A DNA stretch of 64,000 nt from Deltaproteobacteria bacterium (GTDB lineage: Bacteria > SAR324 > XYD2-FULL-50-16): positions 15,277 through 79,276 of the forward strand of contig JABHWU010000124.1 in assembly GCA_018657625.1 (NCBI GenBank), in the 5' to 3' direction. Positions 7,130 to 54,676 of this stretch are shown one piece after another. Position numbers and translations under genes: made by a program. Every line of letters starts with the position of its first letter. Positions within the stretch are counted from its first letter, which is position 1. The notes beneath the pieces are model-generated. The model did no database searches. It had not been told where the DNA came from and saw nothing but the letters and a program-made list of their open reading frames with translations.

Positions 7130-8005
7130 ATGCAGCAGTCAGATACAATCCAACGATTTATTTTTGATCAAAAAGATATCAGAGGTGAAATTGTCCACCT
7201 AAATAAAAGTTACCAAAAAGCCATCCATGGGCATGAATATCCAGCTGTCATTCAGACACTATTAGCGGATGCTTTAGTATCAGTAACGCTGCTATCTGCC
7301 ACCTTAAAATTTAAAGGTCGGCTGAGTATTCAGTTACAAGGTGGAGATACCATTTCTCTGTTACTGGTTCAGATCACTCATAATCAGGAAATGCGTGCTA
7401 CCATAAAGTGGGAGGGGGATACAGAAAACAAAGCGTTAACTGAATTAATTAAAAATGCAAATCTGGTGATAACCATTGAGCCGGAGGAAGGTCAGCGTTA
7501 TCAGGGAATAGTACCATTAAAAGGGGATCGTTTTAATCAGTTTATCGAAAAATACTTTGAACAATCTGAACAGTTACCCACCAGAATCTGGTTAGTTTCT
7601 GATCAACAGCACACGGCGGGTTTATTACTGCAAAGACTACCGGAAAAAGAAAATCAAATTCGGTCAAATGAACAGGATTGGGAGCATTTTACAATTTTAA
7701 CAGAAACACTTAAAGACACAGAATTACTTAATTTACCAAATAGTGAATTATTATACCGATTATATCACAGTGAAACCGTTAAAATTTTTAAGCCACAAAC
7801 AGTTCAATATGTTTGCGGCTGTTCCAGGGAAAAATGTGAAAATGCAATTATCAGCTTAGGTCCACAAGAAATTGAAAGCATCAAAAAAGAAGAAGAATTT
7901 ATCGAAATTAAATGTGACTTTTGCAATAAAAATTATCATTTCGATATTGTTGACTTAACTCGCTTACAGAACTTGTCAGAGGAAAAATTCCAAAAAAATT
8001 CCTGA
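7130..8005 (+). CDS. hslO: Hsp33 redox-regulated chaperone
   Basis: 291 aa. C-terminal zinc-centre motif CGCS...C-x27-CDFC. N-terminal Hsp33 core similarity. Confidence 0.85.
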   Translation: MQQSDTIQRFIFDQKDIRGEIVHLNKSYQKAIHGHEYPAVIQTLLADALVSVTLLSATLKFKGRLSIQLQGGDTISLLLVQITHNQEMRATIKWEGDTENKALTELIKNANLVITIEPEEGQRYQGIVPLKGDRFNQFIEKYFEQSEQLPTRIWLVSDQQHTAGLLLQRLPEKENQIRSNEQDWEHFTILTETLKDTELLNLPNSELLYRLYHSETVKIFKPQTVQYVCGCSREKCENAIISLGPQEIESIKKEEEFIEIKCDFCNKNYHFDIVDLTRLQNLSEEKFQKNS

Positions 8006-10248: not shown

Positions 10249-10635
10249 TTCTTTAACTCCATTTCAGATTGTGGATTAGTGGTATCGATTTCACCCATCC
10301 ATAAATATCAATTACATTCCCATATTATTTACTAACAATAACTGTCATCGTCATTTAAACTCTTAGGTTCCAAAAATAGTGATAAAATGGAATCAGGAAT
10401 TCAAAACCGTTTTCGATATCGTTGATTAAGCGATACTGATAAAGCTGTTTTCCGACTTTTTGATTACAGAAAATATAAATACTCTTCAAACCATTTCTTC
10501 TTCTTATTATTTTGCAGGTCCGCCAAAACTTTGTGGTCTTTTCACTTAAAGGATTTTTCTTCATTTCCAAGCCGTAGTGTCAGGGAATGTTTTTTTATAC
10601 AAATTATTGACAAAGAATCAATTTACAAAAGTGCT

Positions 10636-11610
10636 TTAAGTATTGTAAATATCATTTAAATCAGTTTGATAGCGAACAGTTTTCCAGGAAGATTCATTGA
10701 CCTTTAATTGAAAAATATCTGGCCGGGCATAGTGACCGGTAACATCAAAATCCAATTTTGCTTTCGCAATCTGATTCAAATCCAACTCTGCCCGTAAAAT
10801 ACCTGCTTCATCAAAAAGAGGACCTGCCAGAACCTCTCCCTGGGGAGAAATAATCGCGCTGCCACCGCGACACATTTGTTCATCCATCTGCGATAACTCA
10901 TCAATCATTGGTAATTCTTCAGGGTACATCGATTTGGTGACATATTGATTACAACCCAAAACAAAACATCTCCCTTCACAGGCAATATGTTTAAGCGTTG
11001 CCTGCCAGTTATCTCTGGAGTCTGCTGTGGGGGCAAGATATATCTGAACTCCTTTCCCATAAATAGCCATTCTGGCCAATGGCATATAATTTTCCCAACA
11101 AATTAACCCACCCACTTTACCAAATTCTGTATTTACCACGGTTAATGTACTACCGTCGCCTTCACCCCAAATCAATCTTTCACTACCTGTTGGTTTTAAT
11201 TTCCGATGAATACCGGCAACTGTCCCTGTTTTATTGATGTATATTTGTGAACAATAGAGGGTATTTTCTGAAGTCTGATCTTTTTCAATAATCCCCACAC
11301 TTAGAAAAACACTATTTTGCCGGGCAATTTTACATAATTGTTTAACTTCATCGCTTTCCAGCGATATTGAATTTTCCCAATATTTTAACCAAAGTTCCCT
11401 TCCAATTTCCTTCCGATTGCCGACAACCATACCAAATCCTAACCCCCTAGGGTAAGCCGGTATAAATGCTTCCGGGAATAAAACCAGATCGGTATTCTGA
11501 CAAGCCGCTTTTTGGGTCAGATCCCCTATTTTTTCTATGGTTTGTGATAAGTGAAACAGTACGGGTGCATCCTGAACAACAGAAACATTAACCGGTGATA
11601 TTGGTTTCAA
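10636..11610 (-). CDS. nitrilase / carbon-nitrogen hydrolase family protein
   Basis: Catalytic triad context FPEAF (Glu), K in RKLKPT, CWENYMP (Cys), typical of nitrilase superfamily branch 1. Confidence 0.8.
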   Translation of the reverse strand: MKPISPVNVSVVQDAPVLFHLSQTIEKIGDLTQKAACQNTDLVLFPEAFIPAYPRGLGFGMVVGNRKEIGRELWLKYWENSISLESDEVKQLCKIARQNSVFLSVGIIEKDQTSENTLYCSQIYINKTGTVAGIHRKLKPTGSERLIWGEGDGSTLTVVNTEFGKVGGLICWENYMPLARMAIYGKGVQIYLAPTADSRDNWQATLKHIACEGRCFVLGCNQYVTKSMYPEELPMIDELSQMDEQMCRGGSAIISPQGEVLAGPLFDEAGILRAELDLNQIAKAKLDFDVTGHYARPDIFQLKVNESSWKTVRYQTDLNDIYNT

Positions 11611-11624
11611 AATAGCTCCTGATT

Positions 11625-12692
11625 TTAGTAATTTAACATTTCATCAATGATTATAAAAATTTGCTGATTGCCCTGATCCAAAGACTGTTGATTTATTTGT
11701 TGAATAATTTGATCTTTATTTTGAATAATTTCCTGAATTTTTTCAATAATGGAAATTTCAGAAAGACTCTCTTCTTCAACAACAACAGCCAGCCCTTGTT
11801 TAGCAAAGGACTTTGCATTCAGTATCTGATCCCCCCGGCTGGCTTTTTTAGAAAGCGGAATCAATAAGGATGGTTTTTTAACAGCCAGCAGTTCAAAAAG
11901 GATGGTAGCTCCGGCCCGGGATATTACCAGGTCCGCCATGGCGAAAAAATCCGGAAGCTCCTGATCAACATATTCAAATTGTCGGTAATCAACCCTATCC
12001 ATCAATGATTCGTCTAAACCATTCTGGCCACAAATATGGCAAATCGAAAATTCACTAGATAAAGTATCAATATTTTCCCGAATCAAATCGTTGATCACTT
12101 TTGAGCCTAAACTACCGCCAACAATTAGTAATACAGGTTTATCTGACTTAAAATTACAAATTTTCTTACCCTGGGAGGCATTGCCATTTTGAATCACAGA
12201 CCGAACGGGAATACCGGTATGGACAGCTTTCGACGAATTAATATATTTAATCGTTTCAGGAAAACTATAACAAATCTTTTTGGCAAAGGGTGCTGACAGA
12301 CGGTTGGTTAATCCGGGAGTCAGGTCAGATTCATGGATGATCACCGGAATTCGTAACAACCATGAGGCCCAAACCACCGGACAGGAGACAAAACCACCTT
12401 TGCTGAATACTACCCCGGGTTTAATTTTCAGCAATAGAAAAATCGATTTTAAAACTCCCAATACTATTTTAAAAACATCTGTAAAATTTTTGAAATCAAA
12501 ATACCGGCGAAGTTTACCTGCTGAAATATGATGATAGTAATCCACTACCCCTTCCACCAGTTTCTGCTCAATACCATTAATTTGCCCAATATAATGAACC
12601 TCCAACCCTTTCGATTTTAATTCAGGTATAATGGCCAAGTTTGGCGTGACATGACCAGCTGTTCCACCACCGGTCAGAACAATTCGTTTCAT
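11625..12692 (-). CDS. murG: undecaprenyldiphospho-muramoylpentapeptide beta-N-acetylglucosaminyltransferase
   Basis: N-terminal GGGTAGHVTP motif, GT28 fold length (355 aa), C-terminal nucleotide-sugar binding region. Confidence 0.85.
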   Translation of the reverse strand: MKRIVLTGGGTAGHVTPNLAIIPELKSKGLEVHYIGQINGIEQKLVEGVVDYYHHISAGKLRRYFDFKNFTDVFKIVLGVLKSIFLLLKIKPGVVFSKGGFVSCPVVWASWLLRIPVIIHESDLTPGLTNRLSAPFAKKICYSFPETIKYINSSKAVHTGIPVRSVIQNGNASQGKKICNFKSDKPVLLIVGGSLGSKVINDLIRENIDTLSSEFSICHICGQNGLDESLMDRVDYRQFEYVDQELPDFFAMADLVISRAGATILFELLAVKKPSLLIPLSKKASRGDQILNAKSFAKQGLAVVVEEESLSEISIIEKIQEIIQNKDQIIQQINQQSLDQGNQQIFIIIDEMLNY

Positions 12693-12698
12693 GTTTTT

Positions 12699-13529
12699 TT
12701 AATTTGCAGATGAATTTTTCAGCAGGTATTGCATTGCTGTTATATCAACACCATTTTGGTAATTAAATTTCATCGGACAAACGGCAACATGTTTCTTCTC
12801 TGCTAAAACATAAATATCTGAAGTATGAGAAAGTTGTTCTTTATCATAAACAATTCTCACCCGAATATCGCTGACTTTAGAATTCAAGGTCGGAGCGTCA
12901 AAATATGTTTCATAATAAGGTTGATCCGCAACTTCTGTAAATTCACACGCCGTCTTTTCATTTGCATCTGCAGGGACATCTATTTTTAATATATCGATAT
13001 CCTTCGGAAACCCTTGTGATAAAACCTGAATGGCAAACCGGTTTAAGAAATAAATGGAGGGCCGCCAGTCCTGCTTCGTATATTCGAAATGGCTGTCTGT
13101 TTTTGTTTGCTTCGAAACCGCTAGGGCAGGTGTACCCAGACTAGAAGCTTCAAAAGCAGCGCCTACTGTTCCTGATACACTAACATTTGACCCAATATTT
13201 TCACCGTAATTAATACCGGAAACAGCCAGATCAGGTAATTGGCCCTTAAACAGGATATTATAAGCCAGCTGAACAATTAAAGATGGTGAACAATCACAGG
13301 TATAGGCTTCAATTTTATTACCCTCAATATCATATGGCACAGGTTCAAGTTTAGCATCAGTAGCACCGACATGACTGCGGCTCATAGCAGTTTGCTGCCT
13401 CGAAGGGGCAGCCACCACGATACGTCCCAACCCCAAAACGCCCTGAATTGATGCCTTTAAGCCAGGGGAGTGGATACCATCATCGTTAGTTAAAAAAATA
13501 AGTGGTTTATTCATAAATTTTTTACTCAT
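12699..13529 (-). CDS. surE: 5'/3'-nucleotidase SurE
   Basis: Starts with LTNDDGIHSPGL, the SurE signature. 276 aa. Confidence 0.85.
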   Translation of the reverse strand: MSKKFMNKPLIFLTNDDGIHSPGLKASIQGVLGLGRIVVAAPSRQQTAMSRSHVGATDAKLEPVPYDIEGNKIEAYTCDCSPSLIVQLAYNILFKGQLPDLAVSGINYGENIGSNVSVSGTVGAAFEASSLGTPALAVSKQTKTDSHFEYTKQDWRPSIYFLNRFAIQVLSQGFPKDIDILKIDVPADANEKTACEFTEVADQPYYETYFDAPTLNSKVSDIRVRIVYDKEQLSHTSDIYVLAEKKHVAVCPMKFNYQNGVDITAMQYLLKNSSAN

Positions 13530-13724: not shown

Positions 13725-14609
13725 ATGCAAAATCAAACACTTGGTATTATATTTTCATTAAGTGCAGCCTTTTTTTGGTCCACCTCTGTGATTATGTACA
13801 GAAAAAGCGGTGACGGGTTTTCTCCGCTTTCCCTGAATTTTTTTAAGAGTTTAATTGCAATTATTCTCCTGCTTCCAACTTTATATCTTAAAGAAGTAGA
13901 TTTTATCCCGGATAATTCAATCAATGACTGGTTATTAATAATCATCTCAGGAATACTTGGAACTGCTTTAGCTGATTCGCTATTTTTTTCATCTTTAAAT
14001 CGTATTGGCGCCAGTTTAAATGCTATTATTGGTTGTTCTTACTTACCATGTATCATCATATTTTCTTACATCTTTTTAGACGAAGCACTGGGTTTCAAAG
14101 GATTAATCGGTGGTGCTTTAGTACTTTCCGCGCTATTTGTTTCTACCTGGCATGGAAAACGCCAAAATATAGACCGTAAAGACCTTATCGTTGGGATTAT
14201 TTACGGTTTAGCCGGTATTTTGACAATGGTCGTTGGCATAATCATGATTAAGGGCGTTTTATTAAGATCTGATGTTGTCTGGGTAACTTTGATCAGAACC
14301 GGCGCAGCATTATTAGGGCTGTTGGTTACTATTATACTTCACCCGCAGCGTAAAAAACTATGGCTGGAATTGCAACCATCTCTAATCTGGAAGTGGGCGG
14401 TACCCGCCTCTGTCGGTAACTACCTGGCACTGTTATTTTGGCTGGCAGGCATGAAATATACAATGGTTAGTCTGGCCGCAATTTTAAATCAGTTATCAGC
14501 CATTTTAATTTTTATATTGGCGGCGATTTTCCTGAAGGAAAAAATAACAACCGCTAAATCAATTGCCGTCTTTCTGGCTTTATCAGGCGCAATTATCGCT
14601 ACCCGATAA
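13725..14609 (+). CDS. EamA/DMT-family transporter
   Basis: 294 aa, about 10 TM helices, duplicated EamA-like halves. Confidence 0.75.
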   Translation: MQNQTLGIIFSLSAAFFWSTSVIMYRKSGDGFSPLSLNFFKSLIAIILLLPTLYLKEVDFIPDNSINDWLLIIISGILGTALADSLFFSSLNRIGASLNAIIGCSYLPCIIIFSYIFLDEALGFKGLIGGALVLSALFVSTWHGKRQNIDRKDLIVGIIYGLAGILTMVVGIIMIKGVLLRSDVVWVTLIRTGAALLGLLVTIILHPQRKKLWLELQPSLIWKWAVPASVGNYLALLFWLAGMKYTMVSLAAILNQLSAILIFILAAIFLKEKITTAKSIAVFLALSGAIIATR

Positions 14610-20507: not shown

Positions 20508-20515
20508 AAACCGCT

Positions 20516-20660
20516 ATTTAGTGTCTGAGCGAAAAGTAGATAATTTGGGGACATGTACAATTTGTAGAAAACACTTTAATAATTAAATACCAAGTTGTTA
20601 CGTGTACCCTAATTACCGGACTTATTTTCCAATAATTGAATTTTCGTTCAGCCACTATTT
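20516..20660 (+). mobile_element. MITE-like element, copy 1 (about 136 bp core, 17 bp TIRs)
   Basis: agtgtctgagcgaaaag...cttttcgttcagccact with internal second inverted repeat (aatttggggacatgtaca / gttacgtgtaccctaatt). Flanked by ATTT on both sides. Highly similar to copies at 35182, 39236, 44384 and 44524. Confidence 0.6.
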
Positions 20661-20751
20661 AAGATTTATCACCAACAGTGAATATTTCTAAAATACCAGT
20701 ATACTGTGACTGCTTAAGCGTTTTTAAAATCTAATTGATCAACCACTATCT

Positions 20752-28346: not shown

Positions 28347-29711
28347 TCATTTTCTTTTTCTTCTGAGATTGACTTGGGCATCGATAGGTGGATAAATAAA
28401 TTTCCAGTTTATTATCAGCTCTTTTTCAGGAAAGGCTTCCGGAAGTGACGGCCTTTCTAAAGAACCAATCAAAGCCTGAATAACACTCAATTCCATTTCT
28501 GCTGTCAGATTGGAGTCAAATACCTTATAACCAAGCAGTTTCCCTGTTTTTTGTAATCTGACCCGAACCCAAACGTTCCCCCCATCGGGAATTTTTCCCA
28601 GTCTGTAGTCAGTGGGTGCAGACCACCAACGGGAAAGATCAACTGCCCAGTTTTCCATATAACGTTCATAGGTCCATTTATAAGTATTCATGGAGAATTG
28701 AATGGTATCTTCATTGGTACGTTCCGGTTTTATCCCTCTAAAACTTTTTTTTATAATTTCAGGTGTTTCGTCAACAGGTTTTTTAGCATTTGGTGTTACC
28801 CGAAACAGTGGAGAAATACTGGCAACAATGGCCGCTTCTTGCTTCGATTCAACAATGGTTTCTGCTTCCGATTCAACAATCGTTTCTGCTTCCGGTTCAA
28901 CAATCGTTTCTGCTTCCGGTTCAACAATCGTTTCTGCTTCCGGTTCAACAATGGTTTCTGCTTCCGGTTCAACAATCGTTTCTGCTTCCGGTTCAACAAT
29001 GGTTTCTGGAATAGATGCAAAGTCACTCATTAGCTTTGAGGATTGTGGTTCAATGACTTGAACATTATCCAGCTCTGAAACCGGCTCCGATCCAATAACA
29101 TTGACAATACTCTTTTCCGGTTCTGGAGAAATAAGCGGAATCGGTTTTCGATCAGTCACCATCTCCTTTTCAACCTGAGAAGGATCATTTTCAGGGTTTA
29201 TGGTTTCCGGAATTTCTTCTTCGGTATCAATTATCTCATCCGGTTTATGCTCAGTTTCATTTACAGGTTTCTGATCCAAAGGTGCTTCCAGTAATTTTTC
29301 AAAAAACGCTTGATCCAATTTGGTTTCTTCGCCATCTTTTAGGCCTGCATCTTCTTTTTCCGGCAGGATAATTTCATCTTCAACAGCCGTTTCTGATAAG
29401 TTTTTAGTAAAATCCGGTAAATTCTGATACACTTTATCAACCTGATCGTCGCTGGGAGGAGGTTCTGCCATCACGGGATCCTCTACAGGTTCTTCTACAG
29501 GAACTTCTTTTTTCAACTCCGGCAGCTCATCCTCCAGTAATTGAATTTCAATACCCTCATCATAAATATTAGGAATGAAAACTTGATTCAACCACGAAGA
29601 AAGTGGTGAAATTATTGAGATGTGGAATAATAATGATATCGTGATTGCAAATAACAACCAGATTCGATCAGGAGCTACCATAAGTACCAAAAACGACTTT
29701 TTTAAATCCAT
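28347..29711 (-). CDS. tonB: TonB-family energy transducer with 7x octapeptide (ETIVEPEA) repeat linker
   Basis: N-terminal TM anchor, acidic/proline-rich linker with tandem ETIVEPEA repeats, C-terminal TonB_C-like domain. Directly downstream of exbB-exbD on the same strand. Confidence 0.7.
   Translation of the reverse strand: MDLKKSFLVLMVAPDRIWLLFAITISLLFHISIISPLSSWLNQVFIPNIYDEGIEIQLLEDELPELKKEVPVEEPVEDPVMAEPPPSDDQVDKVYQNLPDFTKNLSETAVEDEIILPEKEDAGLKDGEETKLDQAFFEKLLEAPLDQKPVNETEHKPDEIIDTEEEIPETINPENDPSQVEKEMVTDRKPIPLISPEPEKSIVNVIGSEPVSELDNVQVIEPQSSKLMSDFASIPETIVEPEAETIVEPEAETIVEPEAETIVEPEAETIVEPEAETIVESEAETIVESKQEAAIVASISPLFRVTPNAKKPVDETPEIIKKSFRGIKPERTNEDTIQFSMNTYKWTYERYMENWAVDLSRWWSAPTDYRLGKIPDGGNVWVRVRLQKTGKLLGYKVFDSNLTAEMELSVIQALIGSLERPSLPEAFPEKELIINWKFIYPPIDAQVNLRRKRK
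28848..29010. repeat. 24 bp tandem repeat, about 6.8 copies, in-frame within tonB
   Basis: Unit ttcaacaatcgtttctgcttccgg repeated head-to-tail with only cgtt/ggtt and ccgg/ccga variants. Produces spurious antisense ORFs in the six-frame track. Confidence 0.9.
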
Positions 29712-31002: not shown

Positions 31003-33126
31003 TTATTTTCCTTTGTAAAAACTAACATTATATCGATCCCAGATCTTTAAAACAAAACTTAAAGGCTTAATCATCGGAACCGTATAAGAAGGAAATTTTC
31101 TACTGTACAGATAGGAGCGGCACCGGTTCACATAATCGGAAAAACCTCTGGGTGAAAAGATCAACGGTTTTTTTAGTTCTGATTTCAATTCAAGTAATCG
31201 CTCAGGTAAATATTCACTAAGCAGCGGTACCTGTAGATATATAGCGGCAATAACAACATCGGAATTCGGGTCCTCATCTATGATGCGAAGCGTTTCCAGC
31301 AATCGATCATCACCACAGTCGCCAAATAAATCTATCGGATTATGACCAATACTTTCCAGAATTTTTTCACTATTTTCCAATTTATTAGGGGCAAGGTTAG
31401 CTTTCATTAAATTTCTTAAGCGAAGGATCGTTTCCGGAGCAAATTGAGCCAATTGCATTCCTTCTTCAGTGACCTGATCTGCTAACAATATTCCAGCACC
31501 ACCGCCAACACTCACTACGGCAATTCGATCTCCTTCAGTTTTAGGCTGACTAATCAACATGGATAAAATGTTGACCAGAATTTTGGGATCTTCGGTTAAT
31601 TCATCCACTAGAAAAAAGCCCGCTTGTTTGCAACAGGCCTTAAAAGCCTCATGGCTTCCAGCCAAAGAAGCGGTATGGGACATAGCGGCTTCTGCGCCAC
31701 CCCCAATACCACCTTTTATGACCAGAACCGGTTTTTTTTGGGATACTTCCCGTCCTATTTCCATCAATTTTAATCCATCTGCTATTCCTTCCAGATATAT
31801 GGCTATAATATCTATATTAGTATCCTCTCCCATATGTGCTAAAAGCTCTGGTACTCCAACACAACTGGCATTACCGATGGAAACCCATTTACCAACATCC
31901 AGATTATCCGCCGAGAACATTTCCAGAAGTTCAAGGCCGATACCACCGCTTTGGGAAATGATACCGATATTATTAGCTGTATGTACTGCGGACGATCTCA
32001 ATTCCGGGATAAAATTGGTATTGAGTTTTGAAAAATTATCAATTACCCCCATACAATTTGGACCGATATAAGGTACATTATATTCCAATGAAAGCTCTTT
32101 TAACCGCTCTTCCAGATCAATACGTCCCACTTCTGCAAAGCCATCACTAAAAATAACCGCTCCTTTACCACCTATTTTACAAAACGCTTCAAAAATAGAT
32201 ACCGTTCGTTCAGCATTTACCGCAAACACACCTACTTCCGGAATTTCCGGTAAATCTTTCAGACTAGGATAACACTTGATTCCATGAATTTTTTCCAGTT
32301 TTGGATGAATCGGATATAGTTTTTTAATGCCCAGGCAGTTTTTCAATATCACTCCCCCCTGGGTTCCGGGACGAGAGGCGCCAATAATCGCTACCGATTT
32401 GGCATCAAAAATCGCTTTCAAACTATCCAGTTTTTCACTGGATAGTTCGGTAGAAGTCGGGTATACAACTGGAATTCCTTGAATGACGCGTGTATCTACT
32501 AATGCCAGCCCCTCTTCATAAACCAATACCGGATTCAGATCCAGTTCCAGAATCTCCGGATGGGCTGCCATCAAAGTTGAAACTTGTATTGTTAGCTTTA
32601 CAACAGCTTCCAGATCCAGTTTTTCACCACGATACCCGGATAATATCTGGCCAGCTTTAGTTTCAGAAAGCATTCTCAAAATATCATCCCGATTTAACTT
32701 CCCGATTCCCGTAGCAGCATCAGAATACAGTTCCACATATTTCCCCCCCAGACCAATCATGGTAATCGGTCCGAAACTGGGGTCCTGTTTTGCTCCAACC
32801 AGCAGTTCAAATCCGACTTTGGCCATATGCTGAACCAAAACTCCATCCAAATCTTTAACTCGAAACCCTACTTGTTCAATATTTTTAATCAGTAAATCAT
32901 AGGCCTCCTGCAATTCCGTCTGATTACTGATATTGAGATGAACAGCCCCAATATCAGATTTGTGAATAATTCTATCTGATATGGCTTTGATAACAAGCGG
33001 ATACCCAATGATTTCCCCCACCTGAATTGCCTCTTCCTTGGAAGAAGCTAACCTTCCTTGAGCCGCAATACCGTATGAATTTAAAAGGTCATAACTTTCC
33101 TGAATACCTAGCTGTTTTTTTGACAT
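31003..33126 (-). CDS. acetate--CoA ligase (ADP-forming), fused alpha/beta subunits (NDP-forming acyl-CoA synthetase)
   Basis: 707 aa: N-terminal ATP-grasp, then CoA-binding (KSVAIIGASRPG), succinyl-CoA-synthetase-like ligase-CoA domain. Confidence 0.75.
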   Translation of the reverse strand: MSKKQLGIQESYDLLNSYGIAAQGRLASSKEEAIQVGEIIGYPLVIKAISDRIIHKSDIGAVHLNISNQTELQEAYDLLIKNIEQVGFRVKDLDGVLVQHMAKVGFELLVGAKQDPSFGPITMIGLGGKYVELYSDAATGIGKLNRDDILRMLSETKAGQILSGYRGEKLDLEAVVKLTIQVSTLMAAHPEILELDLNPVLVYEEGLALVDTRVIQGIPVVYPTSTELSSEKLDSLKAIFDAKSVAIIGASRPGTQGGVILKNCLGIKKLYPIHPKLEKIHGIKCYPSLKDLPEIPEVGVFAVNAERTVSIFEAFCKIGGKGAVIFSDGFAEVGRIDLEERLKELSLEYNVPYIGPNCMGVIDNFSKLNTNFIPELRSSAVHTANNIGIISQSGGIGLELLEMFSADNLDVGKWVSIGNASCVGVPELLAHMGEDTNIDIIAIYLEGIADGLKLMEIGREVSQKKPVLVIKGGIGGGAEAAMSHTASLAGSHEAFKACCKQAGFFLVDELTEDPKILVNILSMLISQPKTEGDRIAVVSVGGGAGILLADQVTEEGMQLAQFAPETILRLRNLMKANLAPNKLENSEKILESIGHNPIDLFGDCGDDRLLETLRIIDEDPNSDVVIAAIYLQVPLLSEYLPERLLELKSELKKPLIFSPRGFSDYVNRCRSYLYSRKFPSYTVPMIKPLSFVLKIWDRYNVSFYKGK

Positions 33127-33179: not shown

Positions 33180-33270
33180 GTTAACAAACTTGTATTTTGT
33201 GCCTTTAAAATCAAAGTGTTATTAAGTGTCATCTCAACGAAGAATGAGGAGAGATCTTTTTTATCTCAAT
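33180..33270 (+). repeat. about 90 bp intergenic repeat, family 2, copy A
   Basis: gttaacaaactt...ctttaaaatcaaagtgttattaagtgtcatctcaacgaagaatgaggagagatcttttttatctcaa, about 80% identical to 49961-50048 in the same orientation. Confidence 0.45.
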
Positions 33271-33411
33271 TAAGGTTTTTAACTGGATTTTCATCTGTTT
33301 TGGAGTCACAAAATCTGTATTAATAAAAACTTTAATAACCATTATTCTTTTGGTCGATTAACCAGCGCCTTGAGGTAACTGATGGGAGAAAAGGGTCTAA
33401 CTGCTATTGTT

Positions 33412-34257: not shown

Positions 34258-35199
34258 CTATAAGGTAAAATAAAAAACTGCACCCTGACCAACAGCACCT
34301 TCAGCCCTAATCGTCCCACCGTGACGATGGATGATGCGTTGGACGGTTGCTAATCCGATGCCTGTACCTTCAAATTCTGATAGTGAGTGAAACCTTTGAA
34401 AAGCACCGAATAACTTATTTGCATAAGCCATATCAAAACCAGCACCATTATCTTTAATATAAAAAATGGGCTGCTCATTTTCAATGATCTTACTAAATTC
34501 AATCTTTGCTTTTTCGGTTTTACCGGTAAACTTCCAGGCATTTCCCAATAAATTGTCTAAGACAGCCTGGATTAAATTCGAATCAGCATTAACCCTGATC
34601 CCTGGAGTCACTTCTATCGCAACCTCCCTCTCACTATCCAGTTGTTTCAAATTCTCCAAAGTTGAAAGCACTAGTTTACTTAAATCAATATCTTTCCTGT
34701 TCATTTCACAACGTGTCATCCGTGACATTATTAACAGATCATCAATCAGGCTTCCCATTCGATGACAGCCACCCCGAACCCTGTTAATGTAATCTTTACC
34801 ATTATCATCCAGTTGATCGTGATAATCTTCCATCAGCGCTAAACTAAATCCGTCAATCCCGCGCAAGGGTGCCCGTAAATCATGTGAAACAGAATAGGCA
34901 AAAGAATCCAGTTCCTGATTGGCAGCTTCCAACTGAATCGTCCGTTCTTTAACTCTTTGTTCTAAACCGATATTCAATTCACGAACTTGTGGTTCAACTT
35001 GAACGCGTTCCTGTATTTCACTTTTAAGATCTTTGGTTCGGTCTACCACAAGTGAACTCATTCGTCTATTGAATAGAGTTAAAGCCATAATGGCAATGAA
35101 ACCGGTAACCAGAGAAGCAAACACAATTTGTCTATAATTATAAGTAGTGTCTGGCCGAGAATAACTTTGTTTGCTAATGATCCGGTAATCTGGGTACAC
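34258..35199 (-). CDS. sensor histidine kinase (single TM, HisKA+HATPase), N-terminus encoded within a MITE copy
   Basis: H-box FAYSVSHDLRAPLRGI, N box LGNAWKF, G boxes DNGAGFD and GTGIGLA. GTG start and first about 6 codons fall inside the MITE fragment 35182-35285. Confidence 0.7.
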   Translation of the reverse strand: MYPDYRIISKQSYSRPDTTYNYRQIVFASLVTGFIAIMALTLFNRRMSSLVVDRTKDLKSEIQERVQVEPQVRELNIGLEQRVKERTIQLEAANQELDSFAYSVSHDLRAPLRGIDGFSLALMEDYHDQLDDNGKDYINRVRGGCHRMGSLIDDLLIMSRMTRCEMNRKDIDLSKLVLSTLENLKQLDSEREVAIEVTPGIRVNADSNLIQAVLDNLLGNAWKFTGKTEKAKIEFSKIIENEQPIFYIKDNGAGFDMAYANKLFGAFQRFHSLSEFEGTGIGLATVQRIIHRHGGTIRAEGAVGQGAVFYFTL

Positions 35200-35285
35200 G
35201 TAACAATCTGGTATCTAAAAGATTGAACCTTTACTAAAAAGTGTACATGTCCCCAAATTACCTACTTTTCGTTCAGACACTAAGT
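35182..35285 (-). mobile_element. MITE-like element, copy 2 (5'-truncated, about 104 bp)
   Basis: Retains inner repeat and one terminal repeat (ccggtaatctgggtacacgtaaca...tgtacatgtccccaaattacctacttttcgttcagacactaagt). The other 17 bp terminus is absent. Confidence 0.55.
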
Positions 35286-35464
35286 ATGAACGGCATCGAA
35301 GGATTTTCAAAAATATTGGTCCACCGAATATAACGCGAATGAAATACCAAAAAACAAGAACTGATAAAAAATTAAATGTCACTATTCTGATTGCTTCGAT
35401 TTTAACAAAGGTTCATAGTATTTTATAAAGTCAAACACCTAAATTTACCCACTAAAACCAAATA

Positions 35465-39139: not shown

Positions 39140-39235
39140 TTTTGTCAGTTAAAAAATTTAGATTAAAATAATGATTCAATTTCCCAGTATTCTCAATTTT
39201 ATATTATAGACTACTTTCATTCAATACTAAAAATT

Positions 39236-39379
39236 AAGTAGTGGCTGAACGAAAATTCAATTATTGAATATTAGTCCGGTAATTAGGGTACACGTAACAA
39301 CTTGGTATTTAATTATTAAAGTGTTTTCTACAAATTGTACATGTCCCCAAATTACCTATTTTTCGTTCAGACACTAAGT
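39236..39379 (-). mobile_element. MITE-like element, copy 3 (inverted orientation)
   Basis: agtggctgaacgaaaat...ttttcgttcagacact with AAGT on both flanks. Collinear with copy 1 as reverse complement. Confidence 0.6.
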
Positions 39380-39385
39380 AGGAAA

Positions 39386-43072: not shown

Positions 43073-44158
43073 CTATTCAAACAGGGATTCTGAAAAAAGT
43101 CGGGGAGAAAAATGCTGTAGATCATTGATACCTTCGCCGACACCAACATAGAAAACGGGTATTTCAAATTCATTCACAATTCCGATAATCACCCCACCTT
43201 TAGCTGTTCCGTCCAGTTTAGTAACAATTAAACCATGTAATCCGATCAGATTGGTAAACTCTTTGGTTTGATTGATGGCGTTTTGCCCGGTGTTAGCATC
43301 TAAAACTAGAATTGAAGCGTGCGGTCCGGCAGGAATCACCTTGGTTAAAACTTTTTGCATTTTATAAAGTTCATCCATCAAATTCTTTTTAGTATGCAGT
43401 CTACCAGAGGTATCACACAACAATACATCATAATTTTCGTTAACAGCTTTACTGGCTGCTTCATAAATAGTAGCGGCAGGGTCCGAGTTGATTTTGTTTG
43501 CCACAATGTCAACTTCAGCTCGCTTACCCCATTCTACCAGTTGTTCAATAGCTGCCGCCCGAAAAGTATCCCCGGCTGCCAATAACACTTTTTTACCTTC
43601 CTTTTTAAACCTGGCGGCCAGTTTTCCGATGGATGTTGTTTTCCCAACACCATTCACACCGACAAAAAGGTAAACCGTTGGACCACTATCCGCAGCAGGT
43701 AAAAAATGATCCCCCTGATCCAGAATTTGCGTTATAACATCCTGGACAGTTTTAATCGCTTCTGATTGGTTACGAATTTCCAGGTTTTTAGTTTTTGTTT
43801 CAACGATTTGAATAATTTTTTCGGTGGTTGTAAACCCCATATCTGCAGCTAAAAGCCTTTCTTCCAGGTCTTCAATAAAGTCATCATCAATGGCTTCTTC
43901 ACCTTCTAGGTCATTCAATGATCCCATCAAAAGATTTTTGGTTTTTGCCACACCGAGTTTAAATCGTTTAAAGAGTGAGGCTTTTTCTTCGGACTGATTT
44001 GGATCGGTAATATCTTTTGATAGCGGCTTTTCCTTTAATTTTAATTCCTGTTCCTTTATTAGAATCGCTTCGTCAATCTCCTGTGCCTTTTCTTCCTGTT
44101 TTTTAAGTTGCTCTTTCTGTTTCTTTTTTTCTTCTTTTTTCTTTTTACTGAATATCAT
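43073..44158 (-). CDS. ftsY: signal recognition particle receptor FtsY
   Basis: Acidic/lysine-rich N-terminus, NG domain with GVNGVGKTT, DTSGR, TKLDGTAKGG. Confidence 0.9.
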   Translation of the reverse strand: MIFSKKKKEEKKKQKEQLKKQEEKAQEIDEAILIKEQELKLKEKPLSKDITDPNQSEEKASLFKRFKLGVAKTKNLLMGSLNDLEGEEAIDDDFIEDLEERLLAADMGFTTTEKIIQIVETKTKNLEIRNQSEAIKTVQDVITQILDQGDHFLPAADSGPTVYLFVGVNGVGKTTSIGKLAARFKKEGKKVLLAAGDTFRAAAIEQLVEWGKRAEVDIVANKINSDPAATIYEAASKAVNENYDVLLCDTSGRLHTKKNLMDELYKMQKVLTKVIPAGPHASILVLDANTGQNAINQTKEFTNLIGLHGLIVTKLDGTAKGGVIIGIVNEFEIPVFYVGVGEGINDLQHFSPRLFSESLFE

Positions 44159-44383
44159 TCTGATTTGTTTAAGTAATTTTATTTTTAAATGACTGAGTTA
44201 TATTTAAAACCTGAATTCTCTTTATACCCTTAGTTAGAAATTCAAGCAAGCCTTGTCAATGAGGTTAATGAACACTGATCACAGTAAATCCAATAATAGC
44301 TAATAGACAAAAGGCGTCCAAGTGGATCTTCAAACAATATTTGGCACTTACTTAAAATATTCTATAAAGAATTAAGTACTTGT

Positions 44384-44527
44384 ATTTAGTGTCTGAACGA
44401 AAAGTAGGTAATTTGGGGACATGTACAATTTGTAGAAAACACTTTATTAATTAAATACCAAGTTGTTACGTGTACCCTATTTACCGGACTTATATCCAAT
44501 AATTGAATTTTCGTTCAGCCACTATTT
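44384..44527 (+). mobile_element. MITE-like element, copy 4
   Basis: Full 136 bp element agtgtctgaacgaaaag...ttttcgttcagccact flanked by ATTT. Shares its right ATTT with copy 5. Confidence 0.6.
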
Positions 44528-44667
44528 AGTGTCTGAACGAAAAGTAGGTAATTTGGGGACATGTACAATTTTTAGCAAAGGCTTAAACAATTAAATACCT
44601 GATAGTTACGTGTCCCCCAATTACCGGTTTGATATCCAATAATGACATTTTCGTTCGAACACTATTT
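44524..44667 (+). mobile_element. MITE-like element, copy 5 (tandem to copy 4, more diverged centre)
   Basis: agtgtctgaacgaaaag...ttttcgttcgaacact, ATTT flanks. Central region differs (tttttagcaaaggcttaaacaa). Confidence 0.6.
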
Positions 44668-45233
44668 AAATGATTTCAAAATAGTTTTAATAGATTTAAA
44701 GTCAATAAAATAATTATAAATGAAATTTATAACATTATTATATTATTCTTTAAGGCTTATTATGGAGGAAGATTCAAAAAATTCTCAATAAACAAATGTC
44801 GGATTTGATTCTTTTTTATTGGCCGAGGTTAAATTTAGTAGTTTTAATAGATTGATATATTTGTCTTAATTCAACTGAGTTTAGGTAAATAAAATTTTTA
44901 TAATAATATTAATAAAATCATCCATAGAAAAATTTTTGTACAGTAGTCATTTTTGCCAGGCAACAACTTGCATTAAAATAAATTTTACTTAACTTTTAGT
45001 TGTACTTATCATACTTATTTTGCTAATTATTATGTTCATGTAAAATTTAGACAGCCATTTTATAGGGAGTTAGCCCGTTTTTTATTTTTTAAAAACACAA
45101 TTATAACATTGTTTTATTAACAGAAAACCTATTAAATGATTTTGAAGGATTTTGCATATTAAGTATGGTGTACAACGATTTGTTACGATTAGCGGGTGAA
45201 ACTATCACCTGCCTGAAATTTTTTTTGGAAGAA

Positions 45234-45258
45234 TGAAATTGTGATTGATTCACAATTT
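45234..45258. promoter_or_regulatory. near-perfect 12 bp-arm palindrome (TGTGA-n5-TCACA core), candidate operator
   Basis: gaaattgtgattgattcacaatttc, about 35 bp upstream of the substrate-binding-protein start codon (45293). RBS aggaga at 45284. Confidence 0.35.
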
Positions 45259-45292
45259 CGCAAGTAAAATAAAACTTGAATCAGGAGAACTT

Positions 45293-46093
45293 ATGAATAA
45301 ACTAATTAGTCTTTTATTGACACTGATTTTAGCCATTTCCATGGCAACTGTTACATTGGCGGAAGATACACTGTCAACCATCCTGAAACGCGGTGAGTTG
45401 TTAGTTGGTACCGAAGCAGGATATATGCCATTTGAAATGAGAAATAACAAGGGTGAAATTGTTGGTTTTGACATGGATATGATGGCAGCTGCTGCTAAAG
45501 CGATGGGTGTGAAGTTAACACTGATTAATACAAACTGGGATGGGATTATTCCGGCCTTATTAACAAGAAAGTTTGATATTATTGCTGGTGGTATGACGAT
45601 TACTCAGAGTCGTAATTTGAAAGTAAATTTTGCTAACCCTTATATTTCAGTCGGTCAGACGATCTTATTAAAAAAGGGATTAGGCAATAAGGTCAAGTCT
45701 TACAAAAGCTTAAACAAATCAAAATATACCATAGCATCTAAATTAGGTACTACTGGTGAACAAGCTGCAAAACGAATGATCCCCAGAGCTAAATACATCA
45801 GTTATGATACAGAGCAGGAAGGCTCAATGGAAGTAATCTCTGGTAAAATCGATGCTTTCATCTATGATCTTCCGTTTCAGGCAATTATGTATAATGATAA
45901 AGGAAAAGGGAAAGTAACCCATCTTGACAAACCTTTTACTTTTGAACCTCTGGGATGGGCAGTTAGAAAAGGTGATCCTGACTTCCTAAACTGGTTAAAT
46001 AATTTCTTATATCAGGCTAAACATGACGGTACTTATGACAAGATTTATGCAAAATGGTTCAAAAGTACTGAATGGAAAAAAGATCTCCAATAA
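45293..46093 (+). CDS. polar amino-acid ABC transporter substrate-binding protein
   Basis: Start chosen at ATG 45293 (RBS aggaga 4 bp upstream; the ORF-track start at 45245 lies in the operator). Signal peptide, SBP_bac_3-type motifs (GFDMDM, GGMTIT). Confidence 0.8.
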   Translation: MNKLISLLLTLILAISMATVTLAEDTLSTILKRGELLVGTEAGYMPFEMRNNKGEIVGFDMDMMAAAAKAMGVKLTLINTNWDGIIPALLTRKFDIIAGGMTITQSRNLKVNFANPYISVGQTILLKKGLGNKVKSYKSLNKSKYTIASKLGTTGEQAAKRMIPRAKYISYDTEQEGSMEVISGKIDAFIYDLPFQAIMYNDKGKGKVTHLDKPFTFEPLGWAVRKGDPDFLNWLNNFLYQAKHDGTYDKIYAKWFKSTEWKKDLQ

Positions 46094-49029: not shown

Positions 49030-49656
49030 TTAGTCTTCATCTTCAGGTGATGCAGGCTGGAGATATTCTTCCATTTCCTGTAAATACTGTTTAAATTTTT
49101 CAGGAAAATCAGGCAAGGGTGCCAATTTATTTTTTAACCGGGTAACCAATGCATAGCTCTGTTCCAGACTCGTATCATTTTCAGTAATTCCGGCATTAAT
49201 GTTCCCCAAATCTTTATACTTTTTAGCAACCGTAGCAGCGGCCTGTCCCCTTACCAATGCGGCATCCCTAAGTTCATCATACATTTCTTCAGAACAATCC
49301 TCATCCTGTTTAGCTCTTTGCAGGACGCCAATAGTATCAATATCAGGAAATTTTGAGTTGTTTTGATTTTTAAAAAACTCCGGCTCTTCTTGGGAGATAA
49401 AAAAATAGGCATTGGTTAATTTCATGGCCGTGGCTTTTTTTATTTTGATCTCTAAGCGGCAGTAATCTTCAAACTTTTTATAACCCCACTCTTCATAGGC
49501 TTTTTCTGCTGCTGCTTTGGTCAGAAATTCTCCCAGCTCAACCCAATTGGATTTAAATTTTCTGGCAGAATTAATTAAATGCATTCGCATGGAATCTGGA
49601 TCCAATTGTTGAATTGTTTCTTCTAATTGTGCGGGATTATGCTGGTTATTTGGCAT
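49030..49656 (-). CDS. hypothetical protein (208 aa, acidic C-terminus)
   Basis: Good coding composition. No recognisable motifs. Confidence 0.45.
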   Translation of the reverse strand: MPNNQHNPAQLEETIQQLDPDSMRMHLINSARKFKSNWVELGEFLTKAAAEKAYEEWGYKKFEDYCRLEIKIKKATAMKLTNAYFFISQEEPEFFKNQNNSKFPDIDTIGVLQRAKQDEDCSEEMYDELRDAALVRGQAAATVAKKYKDLGNINAGITENDTSLEQSYALVTRLKNKLAPLPDFPEKFKQYLQEMEEYLQPASPEDED

Positions 49657-49960: not shown

Positions 49961-50048
49961 GTTAACGAACTTTAGTATTATAGCTTTAAAATCAAAGTAT
50001 TATCAAATGTCATCACGATGAAGAATGCGGAGAGATTTTTTGTCTCAA
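49961..50048 (+). repeat. about 90 bp intergenic repeat, family 2, copy B
   Basis: gttaacgaactt...gctttaaaatcaaagtattatcaaatgtcatcacgatgaagaatgcggagagattttttgtctcaa. Aligns base-for-base with 33180-33270. Confidence 0.45.
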
Positions 50049-50286
50049 AATAATGGTAGCCGTTTAGGTGGAATGTCTGGTGAGGTAAAACAATTTGTCA
50101 GGAAATTGTTTTTGGAAATGATACAAAATCTATGGAGCATAATAGATTTCATGCTCCATAAAAAAATTTTATAACTTGCCTGATTTATCAAGGCAATAAA
50201 CAGCGCCCTTATAAGACACCACAATCACTACCAGATATGAAATCAGTAAAACACTTGTTATCATACTATCTCCTTTTTAAACTTGA

Positions 50287-53022: not shown

Positions 53023-54414
53023 GGGTCTTCCGCAGAATTAGTGGATTAAATACAAACCATAGGAGTGAGTAAAAAATAACTTTTTTATTGCGACGCACAG
53101 AAAAATACTCCAAAATATTTTAGCAATAAAATATAAAAAAGGAGGTTTCCTGTGCGCATAATTACTCTACTGAATCAAGTTTATTATCTCAAATCATTTG
53201 TTTATAAAAATGATAAAATTGAAGAAGTTGATGGAATGAAAGCCTTTGTGGTTGATATTATTCCCCGGAAAAATAGTAAAGTTGTTTGCCCAATTTGTAA
53301 ATTGCAATGTCCGACGTATGATCATCAGAAAAAACCGAGATTATATGAGTTCATACCGATTTGGGGGATGAAAGTTTACTTTAGATATTTATCTCGTCGT
53401 AGTGTTTGTTTTATTTGTGGTGTTCATGTTGAACTTATTCCATGGGCTGAAGGTAAGAATCATTTGACTAAAGCGTTTCAGATTTTTCTAGCAAAATGGG
53501 CACGACGTTTATCCTGGAAAGAAACAGCAGAGATATTTCAAACCAGCTGGGATAGTGTGTTTCGATCAGTAAAATCAGTTGTTGCTTTTGGATTGAAGCA
53601 TAGACGATTAGATAATATTACAGCAATTGGCGTTGATGAATGGCAGTATAGTCACGGACATAAATATTTAACACTTGTCTATCAACTCAATGACAATATG
53701 AAACGCCTTTTATTTGTAACCAAAGACCGAACTAAGCAATCATTACATGAGTTTTTTGATAAATTTGGCGAAAAACGTTCACAACAACTAAAATATGTTT
53801 GTACAGATATGTGGAGAAAATACTTAGATGTTATCGCTGAACGTGTACCAGCAGCTTTAAATATACTTGACCGGTTTCATATTGTTCAAAACTTGAATAA
53901 AGCTGTTAACAAAGTCAGAATTGCTGAAGCCAGGTTCCATCAACAAGAAGGTTATGAAGCAATATTAAAGCATACGAAATACTGTTTTTTGAAAAGAAGA
54001 GAGAATTTGACTTCCAATCAAGAATATAAACTCAAAGATGTTCTTAGGTATGATTTAAAAAGTGTTCGGGCATACTTGCTAAAAGAGAGTTTTCAACTAT
54101 TTTGGAGTTATAAAAATCCTTATTGGGCTGAGTGGTATTTAAAAAAATGGTGTACAAGAGCGATGCGCTCAAGATTAGATCCAATCAAAAAGTTCGTAAA
54201 AATGCTTCGTAATCATCAACCACTTTTAATGAATTGGTTTAAGGCAAAAAAAGCCTATTCATCAGGCTCCATTGAGGGGTTAAATCGAAAAATAAATCTT
54301 GTTACAAGAAAATCTTATGGATTTAGGAGCTATGAAATCCTTAAGATAGCTTTATTTCACACAATGGGTGACCTTCCCGAACCGGAATTAACCCACAGAT
54401 TTTGCTGAAGAGGC
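53023..54414 (+). mobile_element. ISL3-family insertion sequence (about 1.39 kb) with 8 bp target-site duplication CTAAAAAT
   Basis: Imperfect about 24 bp terminal IRs (gggtcttccgcagaattagtgg / ccacagattttgctgaagaggc, 17/24 match). Identical CTAAAAAT at 53015-53022 and 54415-54422. Single transposase ORF inside. Confidence 0.8.
53152..54408 (+). CDS. ISL3-family transposase
   Basis: 418 aa. N-terminal zinc-ribbon-like CPICKLQCP...C, DDE region with typical ISL3 spacing (GVDEW..., DMW..., C-terminal KINLVTRKSYGFRS). Confidence 0.85.
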   Translation: MRIITLLNQVYYLKSFVYKNDKIEEVDGMKAFVVDIIPRKNSKVVCPICKLQCPTYDHQKKPRLYEFIPIWGMKVYFRYLSRRSVCFICGVHVELIPWAEGKNHLTKAFQIFLAKWARRLSWKETAEIFQTSWDSVFRSVKSVVAFGLKHRRLDNITAIGVDEWQYSHGHKYLTLVYQLNDNMKRLLFVTKDRTKQSLHEFFDKFGEKRSQQLKYVCTDMWRKYLDVIAERVPAALNILDRFHIVQNLNKAVNKVRIAEARFHQQEGYEAILKHTKYCFLKRRENLTSNQEYKLKDVLRYDLKSVRAYLLKESFQLFWSYKNPYWAEWYLKKWCTRAMRSRLDPIKKFVKMLRNHQPLLMNWFKAKKAYSSGSIEGLNRKINLVTRKSYGFRSYEILKIALFHTMGDLPEPELTHRFC

Positions 54415-54454
54415 CTAAAAATTAAAACAAACTGCCAAACATATCCTCAATCTA

Positions 54455-54676
54455 CTACTGGCCATCTTTCTGAACCGGACGCAGCAATTGATTCATCACA
54501 TGATCCGCCTTTTCAGTGTCTGTGTTAAAAGTAGTATTTAAATAATTAGGGAAAAAGAACATTTTTAAAACTGCAAACATGATAAAAAGTTTTATAAAAA
54601 TAATCCCCCATAACTTTTTACCAACTGTCATGCTTTTAAACCCATCATAATAAAAAGAGTAAATTTTGGATAACAT
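54455..54676 (-). CDS. small membrane protein of cyd operon (DUF4492-like)
   Basis: 73 aa, one TM (LWGIIFIKLFIMFAVLKMFFF). Position immediately upstream of cydA as in Bacteroidota cyd operons. Family call from memory of the conserved SFYYDGF/IKLFIMFAVLK pattern. Confidence 0.5.
   Translation of the reverse strand: MLSKIYSFYYDGFKSMTVGKKLWGIIFIKLFIMFAVLKMFFFPNYLNTTFNTDTEKADHVMNQLLRPVQKDGQ

Follow-up and report, generated by a model that had tools for sequence, protein, structure and literature searches.

Prokaryotic MITEs have been defined in earlier works (PMC10969869, PMC3184786) as elements below 500 bp, usually below 200 bp, with terminal inverted repeats (TIRs) of about 4-30 bp, and a census from 2024 counted 1.4 million of them in 56.5% of prokaryotic genomes, with 97% being genus-specific (PMC11602168). 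Among the described families, Chunjie is 178-235 bp long, with 21-bp TIRs and 9-bp direct repeats (PMC3184786), while the Tn3-derived TIME/IMU elements have inverted repeats of about 38 bp that start with GGGG, and a 5-bp duplication (PMC3184786). Truncated copies of QMITE2 of Coxiella burnetii, in which the TIRs and direct repeats are lost, resemble REPs (PMC10969869). REPs themselves are defined by a GT(A/G)G head followed by an imperfect palindrome, and those associated with RAYT have been reported only from Gammaproteobacteria (PMC2817692). The repeat analysed here is shorter than 500 bp and carries no transposase ORF; it has TIRs and direct repeats that flank it as a target duplication, occurs in many copies in AT-rich intergenic regions, forms a stable stem-loop and is mobile, as shown by precise empty sites. 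An earlier sequence-only reading had called it MITE-like. On this evidence that view holds, and the repeat is very probably a family of non-autonomous DNA transposons (MITEs).

The window, i.e. the whole stretch of 64,000 nucleotides that was analysed, holds exactly five copies of the element, on which the repeat search, the alignment and the nhmmer profile (E 1e-42 to 1e-45) agree. All five had been noticed in the sequence-only reading and were found at or beside the positions given there. Their alignment showed a mean column identity of 86%, and a 16-mer of the element occurs five times in the window against 0.82 occurrences expected. The core of the element is 134 bp long and non-coding (variants range from about 122 to 163 bp), and the absence of any ORF in these 134 bp agrees with the proposal that it is non-autonomous.

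Copy 1 (subfamily A, + strand, 20515-20661) consists of a TATTTA hexamer at 20515-20520, the core at 20521-20655 and a second TATTTA at 20656-20661. Copy 2 (subfamily C, - strand, 35141-35286) had been described as truncated at 35182-35285. However, it is complete, with a core at 35147-35280 between TAAGTA at 35141-35146 and at 35281-35286 as read on the + strand (TACTTA in the orientation of the element); it was missed as a full-length copy because its right half belongs to a diverged subfamily, and no copy in the window is truncated. Copy 3 (subfamily A, - strand, 39235-39380) has TAAGTA at 39235-39240, the core at 39241-39374 and TAAGTA at 39375-39380, again on the + strand; like copy 1, it was delimited by alignment and profile. 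The remaining two copies, both on the + strand, form a tandem pair. The upstream one, copy 4 (subfamily A, 44383-44528), has TATTTA at 44383-44388 and its core at 44389-44522, and the downstream one, copy 5 (subfamily B, 44523-44668), has its core at 44529-44662 and TATTTA at 44663-44668. A single TATTTA at 44523-44528 is shared by both, as the earlier description of one common junction implied. In the orientation of the element, the window copies are thus flanked by TATTTA three times and by TACTTA twice, and the 4-bp repeats ATTT and AAGT reported before are the inner four bases of this hexamer, TAYTTA. The claim that all copies in the window are intergenic was borne out. A GTG-extended ORF overlaps the copy at 35141, and the NCBI gene call, which is 37 codons shorter, removes this overlap.

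The TIRs are imperfect and 15-16 bp long (GTGTCTGAACGAAAAG / TTTTCGTTCAGNCAC), with one to three mismatches depending on the subfamily. In copy 4 the left TIR lies at 44389-44404 (+ strand) and is near-invariant in all subfamilies, while the right TIR, ATTTTCGTTCAGCCAC at 44507-44522 (+ strand), has subfamily variants ending in ...CGTTCGAACAC, ...CGGCCAGACAC and ...CGTCCAAGCAC. The TIR had been given as 17 bp with one mismatch; the single mismatch is correct for 16 bp, and the 17-mer pair has two. The right terminus, moreover, reads ATTTTCGTTCAGCCACT and not CTTTTCG... as had been stated. Between the TIRs of the same copy, a GTAG 'head' (44404-44407) and the left arm of an inner hairpin, GGTAATTTGGGGACATGTAC (44407-44426), together occupy 44404-44426 of the + strand, and the right arm GTTACGTGTACCCTATTTACC, followed by a conserved GGAC, is found at 44465-44489 (+ strand).

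The proteins of the window, which comes from an uncultured marine deltaproteobacterium, match exactly those of an NCBI MAG, "Deltaproteobacteria bacterium" (MBT4527701.1 and others, HOD92_ locus tags), and marine assemblies from JGI, ENA and Logan contain them as well. When the window and 120 loci (together 1.07 Mb, partly redundant) were searched with the profile, 171 non-overlapping hits were obtained. De-duplication of flanks left at least 118 distinct sites, of which 86 have a full-length copy and flanks that can be read; these counts come from metagenome contigs of the same population (about 1 Mb, partly redundant) and are not a per-genome figure. The density in the window is 5 copies per 64 kb. 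An invariant 19-mer, TAATTTGGGGACATGTACA, was detected in 114 stretches of metagenome sequence that derive from only a few samples. Among 185,579 GTDB species representatives it had one match, in an unrelated MAG (L001), roughly as many as chance would give; that set apparently does not include the source species. A literature search for the sample and run accessions returned nothing.

The alignment of 88 full-length copies showed several subfamilies that differ in the central loop and the right half, while the left 45 nt, comprising the left TIR, GTAG and the left arm of the inner stem, are almost invariant. The mean pairwise identity of all copies is 92% in the left 45 nt and 74% in the right 45 nt; for the five window copies, which were not chosen by a search pattern, the respective values are 95% and 75%. 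Copies of subfamily A have a mean identity of 96% and bear at least eight different hexamers, so their insertions were independent and did not depend on homology of the hexamer. A variant about 22 nt longer, in which TGTA of the right inner arm is replaced by AGGATCGTGAGACTTCGTAGCGATA, occurs in several subfamilies, which indicates mosaicism. Decay products were also found, namely internally deleted copies and solo left ends beside ordinary genes. The 'left end plus shared 20 nt' of loci L093 and L088 was considered as the end of a larger element, and no matching right end was found within 5.9 kb.

The general structure, based on the 86 sites, is TA-NN-TA / GTGTCTGAACGAAAAG ... TTTTCGTTCAGNCAC / TA-NN-TA. 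The outer TA..TA of the hexamer is near-invariant, and the central dinucleotide varies (AT, TT, AC, AA, CT, GT and others). The left and right dinucleotides are the same in 88-90% of copies, compared with 41-48% expected, and the entire hexamers are identical at 59 of the 86 sites. The dinucleotide is repeated directly and not inverted, as in the pairs TT/TT (17), AC/AC (10) and AA/AA (9). At a few sites, rare non-consensus outer bases are common to both hexamers (AAATTA/AAATTA and TATTTT/TATTTT), and one site has the 7-nt TATTTTA on either side. At least two such shared deviations were seen, whereas about 0.1 would be expected under independent mutation according to our rough estimate, and this sharing of rare outer bases points to duplication of the whole hexamer. 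A target-site duplication of 6 bp at TANNTA is therefore most likely, an interpretation based on three sites; a duplication of 2 or 4 bp with TA as the ends of the element cannot be strictly separated from it by sequence alone, because the outer TA recurs almost invariantly.

The reconstructed target sites have a GC content of 26%. One locus (L013) is flanked by an inverted repeat, from which came the idea that hairpin loops are preferred targets; it was rejected, as the target sites showed no stronger folding than TANNTA controls (p=0.39 and 0.83). A search of the transposon literature for 'TANNTA' found no mention. Correia- and RUP-type MITEs duplicate only the dinucleotide TA. An origin of this IS630/Tc1 type was rejected, since in the present element the duplication includes the variable central dinucleotide, and a complete hexamer is present once at each empty site. 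The origin from Tn3-derived TIME/IMU elements was likewise rejected, as the ends start with GTGT and are complementary over no more than 15-16 bp, and the duplication appears to span 6 bp.

Mobility was revealed by two precise empty sites. At the first, contig L117 carries a single TAACTA, while L099 carries TAACTA, 134 bp and TAACTA again, with flanks that are 93% identical. The second was found in a related strain, whose contig L124 has a single TAAATA (the reverse complement of TATTTA) at the position of the window copy at 20516. The contig of this strain is 38.8 kb long and syntenic with 17.9-45.3 kb of the window, and its parts L121, L124 and L126 gave no profile match at E<=10; all five window copies are thus absent there. 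At the position of the copy at 39235-39380, which L121 lacks, a further indel of about 12 nt obscures the junction. The flanks of the copy at 35141-35286, absent from L126, and the intergenic DNA around the tandem copies at 44384 and 44524, absent from L121, are too diverged for an exact junction. Other, more diverged copies are carried elsewhere on contigs of Ga0307989, the sample of the related strain. The recent activity proposed earlier is supported both by a related strain that lacks all five window copies and by the mean identity within subfamily A.

Six distinct tandem pairs were identified, and in all six the copies are arranged head-to-tail with one hexamer in common, their members belonging mostly to different subfamilies. 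Set beside the observed structure, duplication, target, presence/absence polymorphism, multiplicity and intergenic location, the proposed mechanism of spread is this. Acting in trans, a transposase that is presumably of the DDE type and has its gene at another place in the genome would bind both ends of the element and make staggered cuts, most likely 6 bp apart, at an AT-rich, near-palindromic TANNTA. Repair of the gaps would leave the hexamer duplicated on either side, the element itself being presumably selfish and without host function. Each insertion would make two new perfect targets, so later copies may land in the hexamer of a resident copy, giving head-to-tail pairs such as that at 44383-44668. 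Insertion into the target made by an earlier copy explains the shared hexamer of the tandem pairs. Instability of head-to-head palindromes is one possibility that could account for their uniform orientation.

The window contains a single transposase, an ISL3 at 53023-54415. The comparison of the MITE termini with IS ends, recommended in the sequence-only reading, showed that it does not match: its ends (GGGTCTTCCGCAGAATTAGTGG and GGCCTCTTCAGCAAAATCTGTGG) and its 7-8-bp TAAAAAT flank are unrelated to GTGTCTGAACG and to the 6-bp duplication, and it was rejected as the mobiliser. The search for an autonomous element covered the population contigs (about 1 Mb), in assemblies that break at IS copies, and no pair of TIRs 0.7-3 kb apart was found there (15-mer TIR search, up to three mismatches, 1.07 Mb); the exact orphan TIRs in this 1.07 Mb belong to solo ends or deletion derivatives that have ordinary genes as neighbours. 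An all-against-all megablast of the population contigs revealed no bounded IS-like repeat. Likewise, blastn of the element against plasmid and phage collections gave short AT-rich noise only, and a TIR scan of viral contigs gave 0 matches. IS481-type insertion uses an NCTAGN target, while IS630 duplicates TA, ISL3 8 bp and Tn3 5 bp. By analogy, a 6-bp duplication at a near-palindromic hexamer would resemble the IS481 type more than IS630, ISL3 or Tn3, which is only a lead.

Among the other explanations, the first, which we judge very unlikely, concerns the inner hairpin. It holds that this hairpin, with its GTAG head and imperfect palindrome, is a REP/REPIN-like unit that a Y1 HUH transposase (RAYT or IS200/IS605 type) recognises and spreads in single-stranded form, the outer repeats being a second tier of the same palindrome. 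In most MITE copies GTAG does immediately precede the inner stem on its 5' side, as in the definition of REPs (PMC2817692). The core of the hairpin is GGGGACATGTAC...GTTACGTGTCCCC, i.e. GGGGACATGTAC-loop-GTTACGTGT(A/C)CCC, and it conserves one T:G wobble and one bulged T. Conserved irregularities such as a wobble or a bulge also occur in the hairpins of IS608 and REP that are read by Y1 enzymes. The 25-27-nt core moreover stands alone, without TIRs, in the same population, with loops of 2-72 nt; these stand-alone hairpins are mostly preceded by (A/G/T)TAG and followed downstream by YGGAC, and at the end of one contig the inner hairpin is repeated in a 45-nt tandem array that resembles a BIME.

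The stand-alone hairpins have at least six different, mutually complementary lower stems, among them GTGAAAT/ATTTCAC, GCTGAAAT/ATTTCAGC, GATAAAAT/ATTTTATC and GGAAAT/ATTTCC, that of the MITE itself being GGTAATT/AATTACC. Covariation was analysed for 20 representatives with the loops replaced by GAAA, and it is informative for the lower stem only, the core being fixed by the search pattern. In the lower stem, nine pairs are changed on both sides, and the covariation score is 0.269, compared with 0.106 for shuffled stems (0 of 500 reach the observed value) and 0.04-0.08 when the partners are slid. The identical core was also detected at five sites in four IMG/VR phage contigs (49-61% GC), and each of these hairpins has a complementary lower stem of its own. 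Three of these four contigs share proteins, with an identity of only 28-48%, and the hairpins are located at different positions. Control cores in which one or the other arm was 'perfected' were found in 1 unrelated contig and in 0 contigs, respectively, and a close variant of the core is present in another deltaproteobacterial MAG (L001). A literature search with the sequence of the inner hairpin returned unrelated primers only.

These features belong to the inner module, and the whole element does not fit the same explanation. Y1 enzymes make no target duplication, whereas here the variable dinucleotide is duplicated in the great majority of copies, comparison with the two empty sites reveals that one hexamer was gained, and the outer repeats are ordinary TIRs; a pure REP origin was rejected on account of the TIRs and of this duplication. 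No RAYT-like ORF was matched by phmmer in about 1.2 Mb, with an E. coli RAYT as the query, which is a weak test.

A most improbable alternative is that a site-specific recombinase integrates the element from a circular intermediate. Once joined, its ends (CGTTCAGNCAC-TANNTA-GTGTCTGAACG) would form a core site with 11-bp inverted arms and a 6-bp overlap, recombining with a chromosomal TANNTA. The tandem junction at 44512-44539 has exactly such an architecture. Where the central dinucleotide is asymmetric, it is correlated with the orientation of insertion (32 to 13, p=0.007, with a post hoc grouping), as would be expected if the overlap sets directionality, and the six head-to-tail tandem pairs are also in keeping with it. 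However, with a recombinase the hexamers should follow the lineage of the copies, and the near-identical copies of subfamily A do not show this. Beyond the hexamer, the empty sites have nothing in common with the element ends, and they contain no arm-like sequence. Nor is any recombinase gene associated with the copies. Transposition by cut-and-paste remains the preferred reading, and it is worth noting that its simple symmetric form does not predict the conserved left half, the head-to-tail pairs or the correlation between orientation and dinucleotide.

The folding of the copies was compared with shuffled controls. The long double hairpin described in the sequence-only reading was recovered as a two-tier structure that folds beyond these controls, with z-scores of -5.1 to -6.9 for RNA (element strand; MFE -41 to -45 kcal/mol) and of -3.9 for DNA. 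In 69 of the 88 copies the fold of the element strand is more stable than that of its complement, by a mean of 3 kcal/mol; selection at the RNA level was considered on this ground and rejected, because the copies share ancestry, so the asymmetry is not independent evidence, and their orientation to genes is random. The sites are intergenic overall, although six of them marginally overlap the end of an ORF. Among the 63 sites that could be classified, 39 are flanked by co-directional genes (18 in sense and 21 in antisense orientation), 17 by divergent and 7 by convergent ones, while the intergenic background is 66% co-directional, 17% divergent and 17% convergent; convergent regions are thus under-represented. 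No sigma-70-like promoter or intrinsic-terminator pattern was found inside 44383-44668 in a scan of 44100-45300. Rfam 15 gave 0 matches at the gathering score in the whole window, and its E-value mode gave noise only, both on 44300-44750 (E 0.7 or higher) and on two phage loci, so that no known family of structured RNA was matched. The roles of terminator, RNA stabiliser or promoter suggested earlier are consequently unsupported by the balance of sense and antisense sites, by the scarcity of convergent regions and by the lack of a consensus. That the copies are structured RNA genes or cis-regulatory hairpins, repeated for their function and not mobile, is barely credible despite the strong predicted fold, as the target duplications and empty sites show insertion. 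The best-supported view is that of a selfish element with no demonstrated host role.

The inner hairpin leads to a further proposal, which we put forward tentatively and consider rather doubtful, namely that the MITE is a chimera in which ordinary transposon ends carry an ultra-conserved REP-like hairpin as a functional or independently spreading unit. The pattern in which the hairpin is distributed suggests, as far as can be read from sequence, that it is recognised by a conserved protein, which could be a Y1/HUH enzyme or a nucleic-acid-binding factor of the host or phage. A 25-nt imperfect hairpin that is the same in phages of very different base composition and in more than 100 host copies is a candidate binding site. 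If this is true, there would be a hairpin reader shared between hosts and their viruses, not described before, and the inner hairpin might connect hosts with viruses, much as has been proposed for MITEs that they share. In turn, the 6-bp duplication of TANNTA may mark a group of transposases without a known MITE, and TANNTA provides a clean target rule for finding the mobilising transposase. The MITE family also accounts for contig breaks in this MAG population and supplies insertion markers at the strain level, the strain of the window having five copies and its relative none at the same loci. Its conserved left half, the uniform orientation of the tandem pairs and, above all, the shared inner hairpin are the parts worth following.

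In comparison with the known systems, the element resembles prokaryotic MITEs such as Chunjie of Geobacter uraniireducens and Nezha of cyanobacteria in size, AT-richness, intergenic location, TIRs, direct repeats and stem-loop, as well as in its many copies, its decayed copies and the empty sites in relatives. Unlike Chunjie, it has a core of 134 bp, TIRs of 15-16 bp and a TANNTA duplication of, most likely, 6 bp, and it showed no sequence similarity to anything searched. The Correia elements of Neisseria and the RUP/ERIC-type MITEs (IS630-like) are likewise hairpin-forming intergenic repeats of 100-160 bp with TIRs and TA-abutting ends that occur in hundreds of copies.

The similarity to REP, BIME and REPIN sequences is restricted to the inner module, which also has a GTAG head and an imperfect palindrome, occurs alone and in tandem arrays, is extragenic and has a covarying stem. 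However, REPs are GC-rich palindromes of 20-40 nt, whereas the stems described here are long and AT-rich with only the core being GC-rich, and REPs are without the TIRs and target duplication that the whole element has. The closest analogue in behaviour is QMITE2, whose truncated copies mirror the stand-alone inner hairpins, although it belongs to another organism and differs in sequence and size (about 190 bp). Simple truncation, moreover, does not explain the stand-alone hairpins described here, which possess covarying lower stems of their own and whose core is found again in phage contigs. The MITE family is new and lineage-restricted, one more in a very large catalogue, and is a member of a common kind.

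The halves of the 134-bp non-coding MITE are conserved to different degrees: across the 88 aligned full-length copies and across the window copies, the left 45 nt are 92–95% identical between copies, whereas the right 45 nt are only 74–75% identical. For this comparison, the five window copies represent an unselected sample. In one variant the right inner arm is approximately 22 nt longer, and the occurrence of this variant in several MITE subfamilies indicates a mosaic evolution of the element. All six distinct tandem pairs are arranged head-to-tail with one hexamer common to both members. They are located in the window (44383-44668) and on five of the contigs compared with it, which derive mostly from metagenomes of the same population: L057 (12903-13188), L014 (418-715), L104 (4869-5191), L090 (54-362) and L116 (1677-1962). 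The asymmetric central dinucleotide of the hexamer correlates with insertion orientation (TT, AC, CT and TC together 32 vs AA, GT, AG and GA 13).

The window also carries a complete ISL3-family insertion sequence (53023-54415) encoding a transposase of 418 aa (53152-54408). The termini of the insertion sequence read GGGTCTTCCGCAGAATTAGTGG and GGCCTCTTCAGCAAAATCTGTGG, and TAAAAAT stands at each flank; the same transposase is present on more than 20 contigs, some of them labelled Bacteroidota. About 100 nt beyond the end of this element lies AGTGTCTGTGTTAAAAGTAGTATTT (54515-54539), which is similar to the MITE left end AGTGTCTGAACGAAAAGTAGGTAATTT and may be either a decayed solo MITE end or a chance match.

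On the comparison contig L093 (9046-14937), a truncated MITE left end of 42 nt, together with about 20 nt also present in contig L088, adjoins an island containing AbiEii/AbiEi-like and Xre/RES-like pairs and a tyrosine recombinase of 287 aa. Repeated segments of about 100 nt between these genes (11519-11673, 12917-12954 and 14043-14157) give the island the look of a cassette array.

Two other repeats were found in the window. The first, of 97 nt, occurs in two copies with 77% identity (33180-33276 and 49961-50057), each with a minus-strand gene downstream, an ADP-forming acetyl-CoA synthetase-like gene (31003-33126) and a 208-aa ORF (49030-49656), respectively; possibly the repeat serves both genes as a regulatory leader. 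The second is a tandem repeat of about eight 24-nt units (28809-29032) within the minus-strand ORF 28347-29711, where the units encode the TIVEPEAE repeats of a 454-aa protein.

The 25–27-nt core of the MITE inner hairpin, GGGGACATGTAC-loop-GTTACGTGTCCCC, is identical, wobble and bulge included, in four phage contigs: L128 (3203-3229 and 4545-4592), L129 (3444-3471), L132 (186-210) and L133 (7216-7240). The GC content of these contigs ranges from 49 to 61%, and the common proteins of three of them are only 28–48% identical. A close variant is present in another deltaproteobacterial MAG (L001, about 2737-2775). Essentially no ‘perfected’ versions of the core, with either arm altered to pair fully, were found. 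Each copy carries a lower stem of its own, the two sides of which are complementary.

The inner hairpin also occurs without TIRs, as stand-alone copies at eight loci: L099 (about 7960-8003), L117 (5290-5345), L039 (about 6260-6345), L049 (about 1080-1175), L060 (about 270-330), L087 (about 10440-10505), L094 (547-640) and L116 (696-790). Most are flanked by (A/G/T)TAG on the 5' side and YGGAC on the 3' side, their lower stem shows covariation, with a score of 0.269 compared with 0.106 in shuffles, and in appearance they look like REPs. At the end of contig L097 (14590-14784), downstream of a sugar-transferase-like ORF, the inner hairpin forms a tandem array of at least 2.7 copies with a 45-nt period, 100% identity and no spacers; the contig stops within this array, which resembles a BIME.
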